64,000 nt of DNA from Minisyncoccia bacterium (GTDB lineage: Bacteria > Patescibacteriota > Minisyncoccia > Phycocordibacterales > UBA9973). This document shows, one piece after another, positions 19,973 to 60,397 of the stretch. The notes under the pieces are model-generated. The model saw only the letters and a list, made by a program, of their open reading frames with translations. It searched no databases and was not told the DNA's origin. A program made the position numbers and the translations under genes. The stretch is taken from the NCBI GenBank assembly GCA_049303835.1, contig JBAQNN010000003.1:192769-256768 (forward strand), written 5' to 3'. Position 1 is the stretch's first letter; every line of letters starts with the position of its first letter.

Positions 19973-20632
19973 TTATTCTTTATTTGTTTTTCTGTGTAAA
20001 TCTGAAAATAGAGCTACCGTCTCGGCAAAGTCTTTTTCCGCTACTATAAAAATAAGCTCAGTGGGAGTAGAAACCAACTCTTCTATATTGATACTTGCGC
20101 GAGCGGTGACGGAAAGTAAAGAAAAGAATACATTCGGGGTGCCGAAAACTTCGGGACCATAAGAGACACCGACAGCGGCAAAATTGTGGTTAATAATTTT
20201 TGGTTTTATTTTAAAATGTTTTAACACTTTATTTTCTAGATTAGAAGAGCAAATAATATCTATCTCTCTTGTGCCGATGGTCGTCGTAAAAAAATCATCT
20301 TGCGACACAGAAATATTTTGATAAAGAGAGTCCAGTTTTTTTATAAATTTATCACTGTTTTCATAAATTATTTCAGAAAGAGGAAGTTTGGTAGTAATAT
20401 TTTTTATCACCACATCATGGATGAGAGGTTTTTCTTTTTTAAATTCTTTTCGTAAACGAGACAGAGACACCACCAAGCTCGTAATGGTCACTTGTTTTTT
20501 AGTAAGTACCTCAACGGCAGGACGTATACGATGCGCATAGCTACTCATATTCATATAGTTATTAGTTAAGGCAAAATATGCTTCTAGCTCACCCATTACT
20601 ATTTCCCGTACGATTGGCTGTATTTTAATCAT
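19973..20632 (-). CDS. Hypothetical protein with two ACT-like regulatory folds
   Basis: C-terminal NFAAVGVSYGPEVFGTPNVFFSLL...INIEEL...LH resembles aspartokinase ACT pattern; weak. Confidence 0.3.
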   Translation of the reverse strand: MIKIQPIVREIVMGELEAYFALTNNYMNMSSYAHRIRPAVEVLTKKQVTITSLVVSLSRLRKEFKKEKPLIHDVVIKNITTKLPLSEIIYENSDKFIKKLDSLYQNISVSQDDFFTTTIGTREIDIICSSNLENKVLKHFKIKPKIINHNFAAVGVSYGPEVFGTPNVFFSLLSVTARASINIEELVSTPTELIFIVAEKDFAETVALFSDLHRKTNKE

Positions 20633-20741
20633 TTTAATATTCTAACAGATTTTACAAAAAGTCCAAATTATTACATTAATGTTAAAAAAGTTAACTTCAA
20701 AAAAACAAAAAGATATGATTAAGGAGAAAGGAGTACCCGCG

Positions 20742-20888
20742 ATGTGTAACCCGATGCCAAAAGAGTGCCCGGAGGAGCTTCGACCCATCGTCGAAGAGAT
20801 TAAGATGAAAACGGGAGAACTGACCAGGGTTCAAACCCAAAACCTGGTCAAGAAACTCCGACAAAACAATCCCTCGACTAACAAATAA
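20742..20888 (+). CDS. GC-rich mini-ORF (48 aa from MCNPMPKECPEE...; track gives longer 20679 start) behind a perfect SD
   Basis: AAGGAGAAAGGAG 8 nt upstream of ATG; codons GC-ending unlike neighbours; followed by poly-C and hairpin. Confidence 0.35.
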   Translation: MCNPMPKECPEELRPIVEEIKMKTGELTRVQTQNLVKKLRQNNPSTNK

Positions 20889-20919
20889 CCCCCCCCCCCG
20901 ACACTCCCATCGATCCCAA

Positions 20920-20948
20920 GCCGTCGCTCCGAGCGTCGGCTTTTAACT
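20920..20948 (+). terminator. GC hairpin (GCCGTCGC..GCGTCGGC) + TTTT after the mini-ORF; terminator/attenuator 11 nt before the cysteine-synthase-like ATG
   Basis: Inverted repeat and T-run read directly. Confidence 0.45.
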
Positions 20949-20958
20949 TAAATAGTAT

Positions 20959-21963
20959 ATGAATAATATAAAAAACAATCTTCGTGATCTAATTGGAGAC
21001 ACTCCAATGTTAGAAATAAAAACCAATAGGCCTGATTGGAGAATATTTTTAAAGTTAGAATATTTTAACCCTGGTGGAAGTTTTAAAGACCGCACAGGCA
21101 GAGCCTTGATAGAAGCGGCAGAGAAATCCGGAAAATTAAAAAAGGGAATGACTATCTATGAATCTTCTTCGGGCAATACTGCCAAGGCTTTAGCCATGCT
21201 TTCCGCAGAGAGAGGATATAAATTTGTGGCAATCGTTGACAAACACGCCCCGGCAGACAAACTCAACTCTATTTTAGCTTATGGGGGCAAACTTCATTTT
21301 TGCGCTGAAAACGAAGGCGATAAAAGTGGTCACTTAGTAGATGTTCGTCGTAATAAAGCTAAAGAATTAGCCGAAAAAAATAACGGCATCAATCTAGATC
21401 AATACGACAACCCGGAAAATCCTCTTGGCTTTTATAAAACTTTAGGCAAAGAAATTTTTAACCAAGTACCTGATATTGATTATCTTATAGGGACCATCGG
21501 CACAGGTAGTTCCCTCTCCGGAACAGGTAAATATCTCAAGGAAAATGGTGATACAAAAATAATCGCCTTAGAGCCAAAAGGCTCTAGTCATTTCTCCCCT
21601 TTGGGTCACGGATATTTTATATCCGGTCCCGGATACCCCGCCGGAGCTGTTCTGCCTAAAAATATTGACCCATTAATTTTTGATTTACACGACTATGTAT
21701 CTGATACTGAAACTTTTAATACCATGCGATTTTTTGCCCACCATAAAGGGTTACTTTTTGGAGATTCAAGCGGTATGGCGCTCTACTATGCTATGAAATT
21801 TATTAGAAATAGCCCGCAAAACTCCGAAACAAAAACAATGGTTCTCTTGATTGGAGATAGTGGAGAAAGTTATTTAACTCATGCTTTTTCAGATACTTGG
21901 ATGATAGAAAATGAACTTTTAGACGATAAAGTCGCAGAGAAATTATCTGATTTTTATATTTAA
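20959..21963 (+). CDS. PLP-dependent cysteine synthase-family enzyme (CysK/CysM/CBS fold type II)
   Basis: PLP-lysine motif GGSFKDR, SSGNTAKALA, glycine loop GTIGTGSSLSGT. Confidence 0.8.
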   Translation: MNNIKNNLRDLIGDTPMLEIKTNRPDWRIFLKLEYFNPGGSFKDRTGRALIEAAEKSGKLKKGMTIYESSSGNTAKALAMLSAERGYKFVAIVDKHAPADKLNSILAYGGKLHFCAENEGDKSGHLVDVRRNKAKELAEKNNGINLDQYDNPENPLGFYKTLGKEIFNQVPDIDYLIGTIGTGSSLSGTGKYLKENGDTKIIALEPKGSSHFSPLGHGYFISGPGYPAGAVLPKNIDPLIFDLHDYVSDTETFNTMRFFAHHKGLLFGDSSGMALYYAMKFIRNSPQNSETKTMVLLIGDSGESYLTHAFSDTWMIENELLDDKVAEKLSDFYI

Positions 21964-54274: not shown

Positions 54275-54361
54275 ATTTTATTTCTCTCCATAAAAGCTAA
54301 ACCCCGAGCACCTGGCCCGGGGAGGAAGCGCAAGCGCCCCCTTGAAACGATTTTTTGTACA

Positions 54362-54754
54362 CTATACGCTACAACGAACGAAATGGACGGCAGGAAGCTC
54401 CACGCCCCAGTCGTGAGTCACCCACGACCAGCGGATCACAGCCCGTTGGCGAGAGATTATCACATAGGGAACATACATGCTCCCCCTGCGTGACACGACC
54501 GAGGAAAAGAGGAACAGCCTCCGCTCTCTGAAAAGAGACCTGAAGAGATTCCCCCCGTCTCTCTTGGCGATCGCCTCTCCGTCCTGGAGGTTGAGAGGGC
54601 GATCTATCTTTCGCAGGTCAAACTCTGCGGGCCCCGAGCATTCAAGCTCGGGATGAATGACCCTAGTCACCCACACGGGATACTTGGGCCGGATGCTTCT
54701 GTCTACCCGGATCATATAGTACTCTGATTCAGGTACCAGATGGACGTCGCCCAT
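54362..54754 (-). CDS. Anomalously GC-rich hypothetical ORF (130 aa from MGDVHLVPESEYY; track ORF extends further upstream to 54787) behind a 13-nt perfect anti-16S SD
   Basis: AGAAAGGAGGTGA 6 nt before ATG; ~55% GC against ~35% genomic background; GC hairpin + T-run downstream (54300-54330). Confidence 0.4.
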   Translation of the reverse strand: MGDVHLVPESEYYMIRVDRSIRPKYPVWVTRVIHPELECSGPAEFDLRKIDRPLNLQDGEAIAKRDGGNLFRSLFRERRLFLFSSVVSRRGSMYVPYVIISRQRAVIRWSWVTHDWGVELPAVHFVRCSV

Positions 54755-54838
54755 ATTCTCACCTCCTTTCTTTGAGAAGTACTTCAACTAAATAAAACCA
54801 CATTCTTCGTATTTTAGCAAGTATTAAAAAGAGCAAAT

Positions 54839-55710: not shown

Positions 55711-55763
55711 AATATAAGTATAGCATACTTCTAAAAAGAATGCAAGTTTTGGGACTGTGTAAC

Positions 55764-55795
55764 AGAAAAATCCTCTCTTGCGAGAGGATTTTTCA
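55764..55795. terminator. Intrinsic terminator immediately after the rnpB 3' end
   Basis: aaaaatcctctc-ttgc-gagaggattttt perfect 7-bp stem, bidirectional flanks. Confidence 0.6.
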
Positions 55796-55800
55796 TGTTT

Positions 55801-56154
55801 TTGTCTTGCGCCTATAAGCCGAATTTTGTACTTTGGCCGAAACCAAAGGATAGCAATTTATCTAGGCCTAAAATTACTTTCAGGCTCAAGCGATTCTCTC
55901 CGACCTAAGTCGGAGCACGATCTTGCACAGAGGTAAGGATTTAGCCGTTTCACTCTGATGTCTCCATCAGATTACCCCCGAAGGGGCCCTAGCCTTTCGG
56001 CATCGGCGTCTCTGCTCGCACCTATGCATTACTGCACACGGGAGTTACCCGCTACCATTTTTTCGCCCCGCATAAATACGGGGTAAACTGTGTTCGGACT
56101 TTCCTCCCTACAGCTTTCACCATAGAGTAGCTATCCAACGCAGGACTAGAGACA
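55801..56154 (-). ncRNA. rnpB: RNase P RNA (bacterial type A-like)
   Basis: Minus-strand sequence contains the P4 strand GGGAGGAAAGUCCGAACAC, GGGUAACUCC, and the 3' P4 strand ACAAAAUUCGGCUUAUAGGCGC; 5'/3' ends pair (UUGUCU...AGACAA); GC-rich. Confidence 0.75.
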
Positions 56155-56170
56155 ATTATACTATAAATTT

Positions 56171-58017: not shown

Positions 58018-58069
58018 CTAAGTAAAAATAAGTATAACAACCTGTCAATAAAATGCAATTAAATTAAGT

Positions 58070-58360
58070 GTATAAAAAGGGTGGCCCCGAGTGTGCTGTA
58101 GGCAACATTCGGGGCCGGATAGCTACGCGAACTCGTCATCATCCTCCGGCGGCGGACCGAAGGAGGAGTCTGCGGCATGAAGGACAGGTTCCTGTCCGAG
58201 GAACCGACGGACGTCCCCCTCAAACGGGGAATCGGTGTGAAGAAAAATGTCGGGAAGACCGACCCCGGCGCATCCGACACCACGCTCGGAACCTTCGGGA
58301 CCATTTGACGTTCTGGTCTCATCATTTTTTGTGCTCACCTCAAGCTCCTTTCTGTTCAAA
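58070..58360 (-). other. GC-rich promoter-to-terminator cassette upstream of the decarboxylase gene: either a ~70-aa acidic GC-rich ORF or a structured leader RNA
   Basis: Promoter TTGATT-N16-TATAGT at 58372-58399 (minus), SD AAAGGAG + GTG/TTG start, ORF ...GPPPEDDDEFA, then hairpin GGCCCCGA(20-nt loop)UCGGGGCC + U-run at 58078-58113. Confidence 0.35.
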
Positions 58361-58371
58361 ACTATACCAGA

Positions 58372-60397
<2,026 letters not shown>

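Follow-up and report, generated by a model that had tools for sequence, protein, structure and literature searches.

The question raised by this locus is whether a short open reading frame (ORF), led by a strong Shine-Dalgarno (SD) motif and located just upstream of a cysteine-synthase-family gene, serves that gene or is a gene in its own right. The window, i.e., the whole stretch of 64 kb of Minisyncoccia DNA that was analyzed, has 39% GC, and its genes include rpe, rpiB, a split transketolase, gap and dnaE. Its relatives are metagenome-assembled genomes of Candidatus Nomurabacteria / Paceibacterota. The ORF, called the mini-ORF hereafter, is set in a gap of 326 nucleotides (nt; 20633-20958), flanked by a gene for a protein of 219 amino acids (aa) on the minus strand and by a PALP-fold gene on the plus strand. 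A reading made from the letters alone (the sequence-only reading) had suggested a leader peptide or attenuator, or a small partner protein of the enzyme. The explanation considered here to be fairly probable is a different one: the mini-ORF would be an independent, lineage-restricted small-protein gene, residing in a hypervariable slot just past the transcription start site (TSS) of a conserved bidirectional promoter, in a Nomurabacteria-like, AT-rich, nearly SD-free and mostly leaderless genome.

Boundaries and coding evidence of the mini-ORF

The mini-ORF occupies positions 20742-20888 on the plus strand and encodes 48 aa (MCNPMPKECPEELRPIVEEIKMKTGELTRVQTQNLVKKLRQNNPSTNK), with CNPMPKECPEELRPIVEEIK as a segment of the encoded peptide. 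Its ATG start at 20742 is conserved (GTG in L008; labels of this type denote the related loci compared with the window), and its TAA stop is found at 20886-20888. The SD motif AAAGGAG (20727-20733) lies 8 nt before the ATG, in a predicted 5' untranslated region of 16 nt (20726-20741, plus strand), the TSS being placed near 20726 by the promoter geometry. This motif is kept at the same distance from the start in the window, L003, L087, L006, L008 (before the GTG) and L150. The SD-led ORF noticed by the sequence-only reading is thus real and conserved in relatives. The wider SD region AAGGAGAAAGGAG (20721-20733) is conserved only in its part GAAAGGAG (20726-20733), which is present in all family members. 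The upstream AAGGAG of AAGGAGAAAGGAG is not conserved and sits between the -10 hexamer and the predicted TSS.

Two longer versions of the ORF were rejected. There is indeed an in-frame ATG at 20679, where the sequence-only reading had placed the beginning of the element, but the resulting 69-aa version is a non-conserved extension, interrupted by a stop codon in L008 and overlapping the -35 and -10 elements; the true start is at 20742. For a 57-aa version, the ATG (20715) is missing in L003, the extension is interrupted in L008 and promoter elements are again overlapped. Gene callers annotate the mini-ORF as 57, 71 or 46 aa.

An SD of this strength is exceptional here, since an SD-like core precedes only 2 of the 61 long genes of the window. 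Among the same 61 genes, 30 have a -10 hexamer (TAnnnT) ending 5-9 nt before the ATG, TGn-extended in 16 of these 30, which is a leaderless layout. The near-absence of SD motifs is in keeping with a published survey, according to which the anti-SD is undetectable in about half of the Parcubacteria (PMC9297842). The codon usage is atypical as well, as had been suspected: the GC content at third codon positions (GC3) is 0.59 in the mini-ORF, compared to a mean of 0.35 (standard deviation of 0.05) for the 62 long ORFs of the window. The description of the peptide as Cys/Pro-rich was overstated, as only two Cys (residues 2 and 9) and five Pro are present among the 48 residues. Cys2 is the sole conserved Cys of the family; Cys9 is lost in L006 and L008.

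Homologues of the mini-ORF were found in L002-L004, L006, L008, L087 and L150/P0003 (P0003 being a protein representative), with an intact frame of 48-54 codons. The 48 codons of the window and L087 align without gaps, with proportions of synonymous (pS) and nonsynonymous (pN) differences of 0.64 and 0.25, respectively, and a ratio of nonsynonymous to synonymous substitution rates (dN/dS) of 0.21. Across all informative family pairs, pN/pS ranges from 0.18 to 0.43. The indels within the family (6 nt in L003, three codons in L008) are in frame. Nucleotide divergence in the mini-ORF is near saturation between sub-lineages, and the frame is maintained in six relatives despite the near-saturated synonymous sites. 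As judged by these substitution patterns, the data show that the mini-ORF is protein-coding and under purifying selection. Two hairpins inside the ORF (around 20772-20790 and 20823-20850) were also considered as conserved RNA elements and discarded; with nucleotide divergence near saturation, they are not retained in L087, L006 and L008.

The family is small. Only two mini-ORF clusters exist among 5.8 billion proteins, and one extra member, P0003, was obtained when 1.84 billion representatives were searched exhaustively with HMMER; its context (rpiB / 219-aa / mini-ORF / PALP) has the same arrangement as the window. No match was obtained in Pfam, PHROGs, NCBIfam, the PDB sequences or by Foldseek against PDB, and calbindin-like matches (E ≥ 0.15) were judged to be due to chance. 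The mini-ORF is therefore an orphan of a narrow clade, formed by the genomes in which the 219-aa protein is at least 93% identical. The C-termini of the family vary (STNK, PASK, EPKS, KPKG, TESK; ...PSTNK in the window), and neither Gly-Gly nor Ile is found at the end of the mini-protein. In the AlphaFold2 model, residues 11-24 and 29-42 form the two helices of a hairpin, with a predicted local distance difference test score (pLDDT) of 79 and a predicted template modeling score (pTM) of 0.40; no beta-grasp fold is seen in this model.

A variable slot at a predicted bidirectional promoter

The 219-aa gene (19973-20632, minus strand), recognized as an ORF, is divergent to the mini-ORF and is the constant neighbor of the slot. 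Its predicted promoter (20639-20666, minus strand) consists of an extended -10 element TGTTAGAAT (20639-20647) and a -35 element TTGGAC (20661-20666). On the minus strand, this gives TTGGAC-N16-TGTTAGAAT-N6-ATG, a leaderless layout. When the 20-nt gap motif TAACAGATTTWACAAAWAGT was used as a query, 115 metagenome loci were retrieved. In about 85 loci (metagenome and genome), the ATG of a homologue of the 219-aa gene is located approximately 11 nt from this motif, and the TAACAGATTTWACAAAWAGT region would thus act as the promoter of that gene. A second conserved block lies beyond it (AATGTTAAAAAAnTTAAC, followed by 17 nt and a -10 hexamer). It belongs to the predicted plus-strand promoter (20681-20719), in which a promoter scan and the short-gap loci described below place an A-tract, a -35 TTAACT (20691-20696), a 17-nt spacer and a -10 TATGAT (20714-20719). 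The control region as a whole (20636-20741) is 87-96% identical across the compared relatives, despite the saturation of synonymous sites, and the 219-aa protein is 94-96% identical among the relatives with the same mini-ORF family.

The mini-ORF occupies a position that is filled differently, or not at all, in other relatives. In the short-gap loci, about 6 nt separate the same -35 and -10 elements from the ATG of the adjoining gene, which is thereby leaderless, and the whole gap measures only around 95 nt. Depending on the locus, the adjoining gene encodes a PALP paralogue (35-40% identical) or an aspartokinase, or is dapB or another gene. A scan of the slot, which required an SD-like motif upstream of the ORF, identified slot ORFs in 37 loci, representing 28 distinct proteins in 18 BLAST families. 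They begin 93-134 nt after the conserved motif and comprise about 45-80 codons, with a mean GC3 of 0.55 versus a locus GC of 0.39, and a GC hairpin is found after each of them. The other slot families also display pN below pS and in-frame indels, and eight other slot proteins gave no significant match in Pfam, PHROGs or NCBIfam. The slot cassettes are to be regarded as standalone genes and not as leaders, because the gene after the cassette is a convergent one, and not a PALP gene, in L078, L049, L044 and L086. Judging from this layout, it is with the divergent promoter of the 219-aa gene, and not with the PALP gene, that the slot is associated. No second copy of the 326-nt gap was detected in the window by blastn or tblastn, by which a repeat or mobile-element identity was rejected, and ARAGORN found no transfer-messenger RNA or tRNA at the locus.

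The occupant of the slot changes rapidly. When the same genome pairs are compared, the mini-ORF has a dN of 0.30-0.72, the 219-aa gene one of 0.03 and the PALP gene one of 0.07; by these estimates, the mini-protein evolves about ten times faster than its neighbors. Compared with L087 and L006, the mini-ORF forms a trough of identity (38-76%) between flanks of 80-90%. Compared with L003, however, the core of the mini-ORF (20731-20820) is a peak of identity, with 95-98% against 80-90% for the flanking genes and a pS of 0.10 against 0.45-0.53 in the flanks. Because synonymous sites change without restraint in the other pairs, this peak is best explained by a recent recombinational exchange of the slot allele. 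The mini-ORF family thus appears to be inherited vertically within the clade and to be exchanged by homologous recombination.

A broader proposal is made only tentatively. The mini-ORF could be one allele of an undescribed hypervariable Nomurabacteria slot at the TSS, where orphan ORFs, led by an SD and in most cases GC-rich, would originate, change ten times as fast as the neighboring genes and pass from one lineage to another. If so, their products would constitute a small set of rapidly evolving effectors or modulators with a translation mode of their own, or the slot would represent a nursery of de novo genes. Literature searches on leaderless or SD usage and on hypervariable small genes in Patescibacteria gave no direct description, the anti-SD loss in Parcubacteria being the only related report.

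A peculiarity of the slot proteins concerns their N-terminus. Residue 2 is a Cys in 13 of the 28 distinct proteins, belonging to at least seven families, while the overall Cys content is 2.4%. Such Met-Cys ORFs are found in L001-L008, L078, L080, L097, L124, L134, L142, L049 and L070. The triplet MCN recurs in unrelated ORFs, as MCNP in the window, MCNK, MCNS (L124) and MCNY (L070, at a different site), and in L005 a remnant, ATGTGTAAT, is visible before the present start. The recurrent Met-Cys(-Asn) may reflect a 5' end that is retained while the body of the ORF is replaced, or a functional N-terminal Cys.

The small protein would act in trans, and the only constant genomic companion of its gene is the divergent 219-aa gene. 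No Pfam family was assigned to the 219-aa protein; Pfam and NCBIfam profile searches indicated a weak similarity to ACT / aspartokinase regulatory domains. It could be imagined that the significance of the mini-ORF lies precisely in this pairing, the small protein being a modulator that is coupled to the ACT-like protein as its regulator or target through the shared control region, and the polarity on the PALP gene being a side effect. The slot always adjoins the promoter of the 219-aa gene, whatever is found downstream, and the shared control region of about 100 bp is strongly conserved where synonymous sites are saturated. Nevertheless, many genomes with the 219-aa gene have an empty slot, and one specific partnership is disfavored since the slot occupants are unrelated families. 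This possibility is therefore considered unlikely, even if it keeps the mini-ORF as the same gene. In several relatives (L148, L139, L106 and L131), the divergent neighbor of the 219-aa gene is aspartokinase-like, about 290-300 aa long where complete and apparently devoid of ACT domains; in other relatives, it is dapB. The 219-aa protein may be the regulatory subunit, encoded separately, of a split aspartokinase.

The hairpin and probable read-through into the PALP gene

The stop codon of the mini-ORF is followed by a C-rich, G-poor 3' spacer (20889-20917, plus strand). It includes the homopolymer of 11 C already remarked upon by the sequence-only reading (20889-20899), and no other run of C or G reaches 8 nt in the 64 kb; the poly-C counts 6 C in L002-L004. 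Within the mini-ORF family, the C-richness of the spacer is conserved and its sequence and length are not, and a C-rich composition is conserved in two slot families only. Pairing of the spacer with the SD, as a self-sequestration or a mimic of the anti-SD, was rejected, as the duplex energies were no better than those of composition-matched shuffles in all six family members.

Next to the spacer lies the GC hairpin AAGCCGTCGCT-CCG-AGCGTCGGCTT followed by UUUU (20918-20944, plus strand; stem 20918-20942), which was identified by its position, its folding energies and its presence in relatives. Its energy is -14.8 kcal/mol in the window and ranges from -14.8 to -18.6 kcal/mol over five relatives, and ten of its pairs are kept in all six family sequences. 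Hairpin and TTTT are located before the enzyme gene as had been claimed, but the TTTT ends at 20944, which is 14 nt and not about 11 nt ahead of the ATG at 20959. The U-run is short, with only 3-4 nt (four in the window, three in L150), and a consensus scanner made no call at this position. In the other slot families, 0-2 T follow the hairpin when a co-directional gene comes next, and 4-6 T in standalone cassettes. The hairpin would thus be a leaky intrinsic terminator or a 3'-end stabilizer of the mini-gene. The AT-rich junction that separates it from the enzyme gene (AACTTAAATAGTAT; 20945-20958, plus strand) contains neither a canonical -10 hexamer nor an SD.

The downstream gene (20959-21963, plus strand) encodes a PALP-fold enzyme of the CysK/CysM/CBS/SbnA family (Pfam PALP, 2.5e-59), in line with the CysK/CysM-like pyridoxal phosphate (PLP) enzyme proposed earlier; its NCBIfam matches are all below the equivalog cut-offs. 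Orthologues with 84-88% identity exist without an upstream mini-ORF, either adjoining rpiB (L009, L010, L014) or elsewhere (L007, L015, L032, L019-L028). The conservation of the mini-ORF with cysK-like genes, on which a functional link would rely, is thus not found, as the PALP orthologues in other contexts have none. These mini-ORF-free orthologues carry a canonical TGnTAnAAT 5-7 nt ahead of the ATG, i.e., a leaderless promoter. In contrast, all orthologues located behind a mini-ORF (window, L003, L006, L008, L087, L005, L011, L013) are without a canonical -10, and their junctions are AT-rich and SD-less, like those of the operon-internal genes of this genome. These sequence data show that the PALP gene of the window has lost its own leaderless promoter; because of this loss, it is probably transcribed mainly by read-through of the short-U hairpin. 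Transcription through the element, as put forward by the sequence-only reading, is therefore probable. Its argument that there is no room for a separate promoter is unsafe, since promoters normally abut the start codon in this genome.

The region upstream of the PALP orthologue receives other sequences too. Unrelated mini-ORF families precede the same orthologue in L005, L011, L013 and L018. Directly upstream of it, L018 (approximately 2557-2979) and L012 (2509-2997) have a gene for a ParB/Srx-like protein with a length of about 140-160 aa (...DGHHRCYVANRLGLKNIPCYLV...), and in L018 this gene is downstream of the slot mini-ORF. These ParB/Srx-like insertions are a further sign that the region may be an insertion hotspot.

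The following series of events can be proposed for an independent small-protein gene at this position. The plus-strand promoter (-35 TTAACT, -10 TATGAT), which in relatives would produce a leaderless mRNA of the next gene, would here produce an mRNA with a short leader, starting around 20726. The AAAGGAG motif would drive the translation of a charged, two-helix protein of 48 aa. By taking the position of the former leaderless start, the cassette would have captured the promoter and left the PALP gene reliant on read-through. At the GC hairpin with its 3-4 U, most of the mini-gene transcripts would be ended or stabilized, and some would leak. The PALP gene, deprived of its TGnTAnAAT promoter, would then depend mainly on this leakage for its transcription and, lacking an SD, would be translated as an internal cistron in the manner of other operon-internal genes.

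A cis-acting role is given a still lower probability than a pairing with the 219-aa protein. The mini-ORF would then be a leader peptide, the translation of which senses cysteine or charged tRNA-Cys and sets the read-through of the hairpin into the PALP gene. The lack of a canonical promoter of the PALP gene, which starts 14 nt past a hairpin with a short U-run, is consistent with this, as are the conservation of Cys2 in the family, its recurrence among the slot proteins and the precedent of the mycobacterial polycysteine short ORFs (bioRxiv 10.1101/834739). However, only two non-adjacent Cys codons are present, without any consecutive run, and one of the two is lost in L006 and L008. Some 175 nt separate the Cys2 codon from the hairpin, and translation would end at the stop codon, about 30 nt ahead of the stem. 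Both the minimum-free-energy and the centroid folds keep the terminator and offer no alternative antiterminator. None can be conserved, as the nucleotides of the mini-ORF are saturated between relatives, and no alternative helix is conserved. Moreover, purifying selection acts over the whole length of the peptide, PALP orthologues elsewhere have no leader at all, and Met-Cys cassettes without a downstream PALP gene occur in L078 and L049. Rfam revealed no leader, with nothing at the gathering score in the window and only chance-level hits (E ≥ 3) for 20600-21000 when matches up to E = 10 were accepted.

A non-coding structured RNA, either a small RNA or a structured leader at the 5' end of the PALP transcript, in which the ORF is incidental to the GC-rich sequence, is very improbable. 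An RNA might be suggested by the high GC content of the element against an AT-rich genome, by a z-score of -2.2 for the folding of the plus strand and by the nucleotide identity of the core between the window and L003, which exceeds that of the flanking genes. Yet the pN/pS of 0.2-0.4, the in-frame indels and the conserved start and SD argue for a protein, Rfam gives no match even at E = 10 and the internal hairpins are not kept. The high identity with L003 is better explained by the recent allele exchange, the synonymous sites being saturated elsewhere.

Least credible of all is a dedicated partner of the PLP enzyme, such as a CysO/ThiS-like sulfur carrier, a precursor resembling those of ribosomally synthesized and post-translationally modified peptides or a CysK-binding peptide, for which adjacency to a CysK-family gene on the same strand is the sole support and against which stand the variable C-termini without Gly-Gly or Ile, the predicted two-helix hairpin in place of a beta-grasp, the lack of co-occurrence with PALP orthologues in other contexts and the unrelated mini-ORFs before the same orthologue.

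Some observations weigh against the independent small-protein gene as well. We infer the translation of the mini-ORF from its sequence, like the TSS and the efficiency of the terminator. The covariation of the hairpin is minimal, with one compensatory change, and the AlphaFold2 model was built on an alignment of three sequences. A feeble -10 candidate, TAACTT (3/6 matches, no TG), is present 9 nt before the PALP ATG. A leaderless promoter of the PALP gene itself is disfavored, as TAACTT is weak and a GC-rich stem lies where the -35 would be located; for TAAAT/TAAAAT at 3-4 nt from the ATG, the spacing is outside the 6-9 nt of other genes. No 16S 3' end was present among the 151 sequences examined, and if the anti-SD of this organism is absent, following the pattern described (PMC9297842), the conserved "SD" needs another explanation. 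Finally, it is not explained why the GC-richness is kept through rapid divergence in an AT-rich genome.

Sister cassettes and comparison with known systems

The recurring pattern suggested by the sequence-only reading is real, as the window contains two more cassettes in which an extended -10 and a AGAAAGGAG leader precede a GC-rich ORF with a GC hairpin behind it. The first one (54362-54754, minus strand, within 54275-54800) has a putative ORF of 130 aa, preceded by the -10 TGCTAAAAT and the leader AAGAAAGGAGGTGA, with a GC of 0.56 and a GC3 of 0.67, and ends in GC hairpins and a T-run. Three homologous clusters of this ORF are found among the 5.8 billion proteins, and it has no Pfam or PHROG family. 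The second one (58123-58338, minus strand, within 58059-58394) has a putative ORF of 71 aa with a GTG start, the extended -10 TGGTATAGT, the AGAAAGGAG leader and a GC of 0.59. Its terminator is GGCCCCGA...TCGGGGCC followed by a T-run. The cassette has no Rfam or Pfam match, and its opposite strand contains a putative SD-led ORF of 43 aa (58177-58308) with a GC3 of 0.77. Another GC-rich segment, in the gap at 55711-56170, is accounted for by a bacterial class A ribonuclease P RNA (55799-56146, minus strand). With 91.5 bits versus a gathering threshold of 100 (E = 1.5e-28), it was missed by the default Rfam scan.

For annotation, this analysis removes an attractive but wrong assignment, that of a cysteine-sensing leader or a sulfur-carrier partner. 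It gives a testable operon model instead, in which an orphan small gene would be inserted at a leaderless promoter and the enzyme expressed by read-through. For the genomics of the candidate phyla radiation (CPR) / Patescibacteria, it also provides a contrast, as about half of the genes are of the leaderless type and few have an SD, yet SD-led, GC-rich and fast-evolving orphans are present at fixed slots. If the 16S rRNA keeps an anti-SD, these orphans would be its privileged clients; otherwise, the conservation of GGAG would have to be accounted for differently. In both cases, the slot is a natural system in which small-gene turnover and coexisting initiation modes could be studied in ultra-small bacteria.

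Several known systems resemble the mini-ORF in part. Phage morons and integron-like promoter-proximal cassettes are compact units of an ORF and a terminator that deviate in base composition from the conserved genes on either side, with varied occupants at one site downstream of a fixed promoter. The mini-ORF is compared with them in these respects, without a claim of membership. Unlike a moron, the mini-ORF has no prophage context, its neighbors being rpe, rpiB, gap and dnaE; no attC-like site or integrase was recognized, although no systematic search was made. The sulfur carriers CysO, ThiS and MoaD, in their association with CysM, share with the mini-ORF the adjoining CysK/CysM-family gene. 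However, these carriers are beta-grasp proteins of about 66-90 aa, whereas the mini-protein has 48 aa, is helical, lacks Gly-Gly and does not co-occur with the enzyme.

In mycobacteria, polycysteine leaderless small ORFs (sORFs) act as attenuators upstream of cysteine-metabolism operons (bioRxiv 10.1101/834739). Here too, a Cys-containing ORF is located upstream of a promoterless cysteine-synthase-family gene, in an organism rich in leaderless mRNAs, as far as can be judged from the gene layout. In contrast to the polycysteine sORFs, the mini-ORF has no Cys run, is SD-led, is conserved in its amino-acid sequence, is not tied to the orthologous enzyme gene elsewhere and shows no alternative RNA structure. 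The closest resemblance is with the bacterial small proteins encoded by sORFs of at most 50 codons in E. coli and mycobacteria (PMC4633059). These share with the mini-ORF a ribosome-binding site of their own, purifying selection, the absence of a known domain and the tendency to be missed or mis-started by gene callers. The mini-ORF differs from them by being SD-led in a nearly SD-free genome, by a GC3 far above the genome average, by its fixed slot, in which the occupants differ between close relatives, and by a rate of evolution about ten times that of its neighbors. The mini-ORF is thus nothing unusual in kind, being a small orphan gene with a predicted weak terminator; what is uncommon is the hypervariable slot that houses it.

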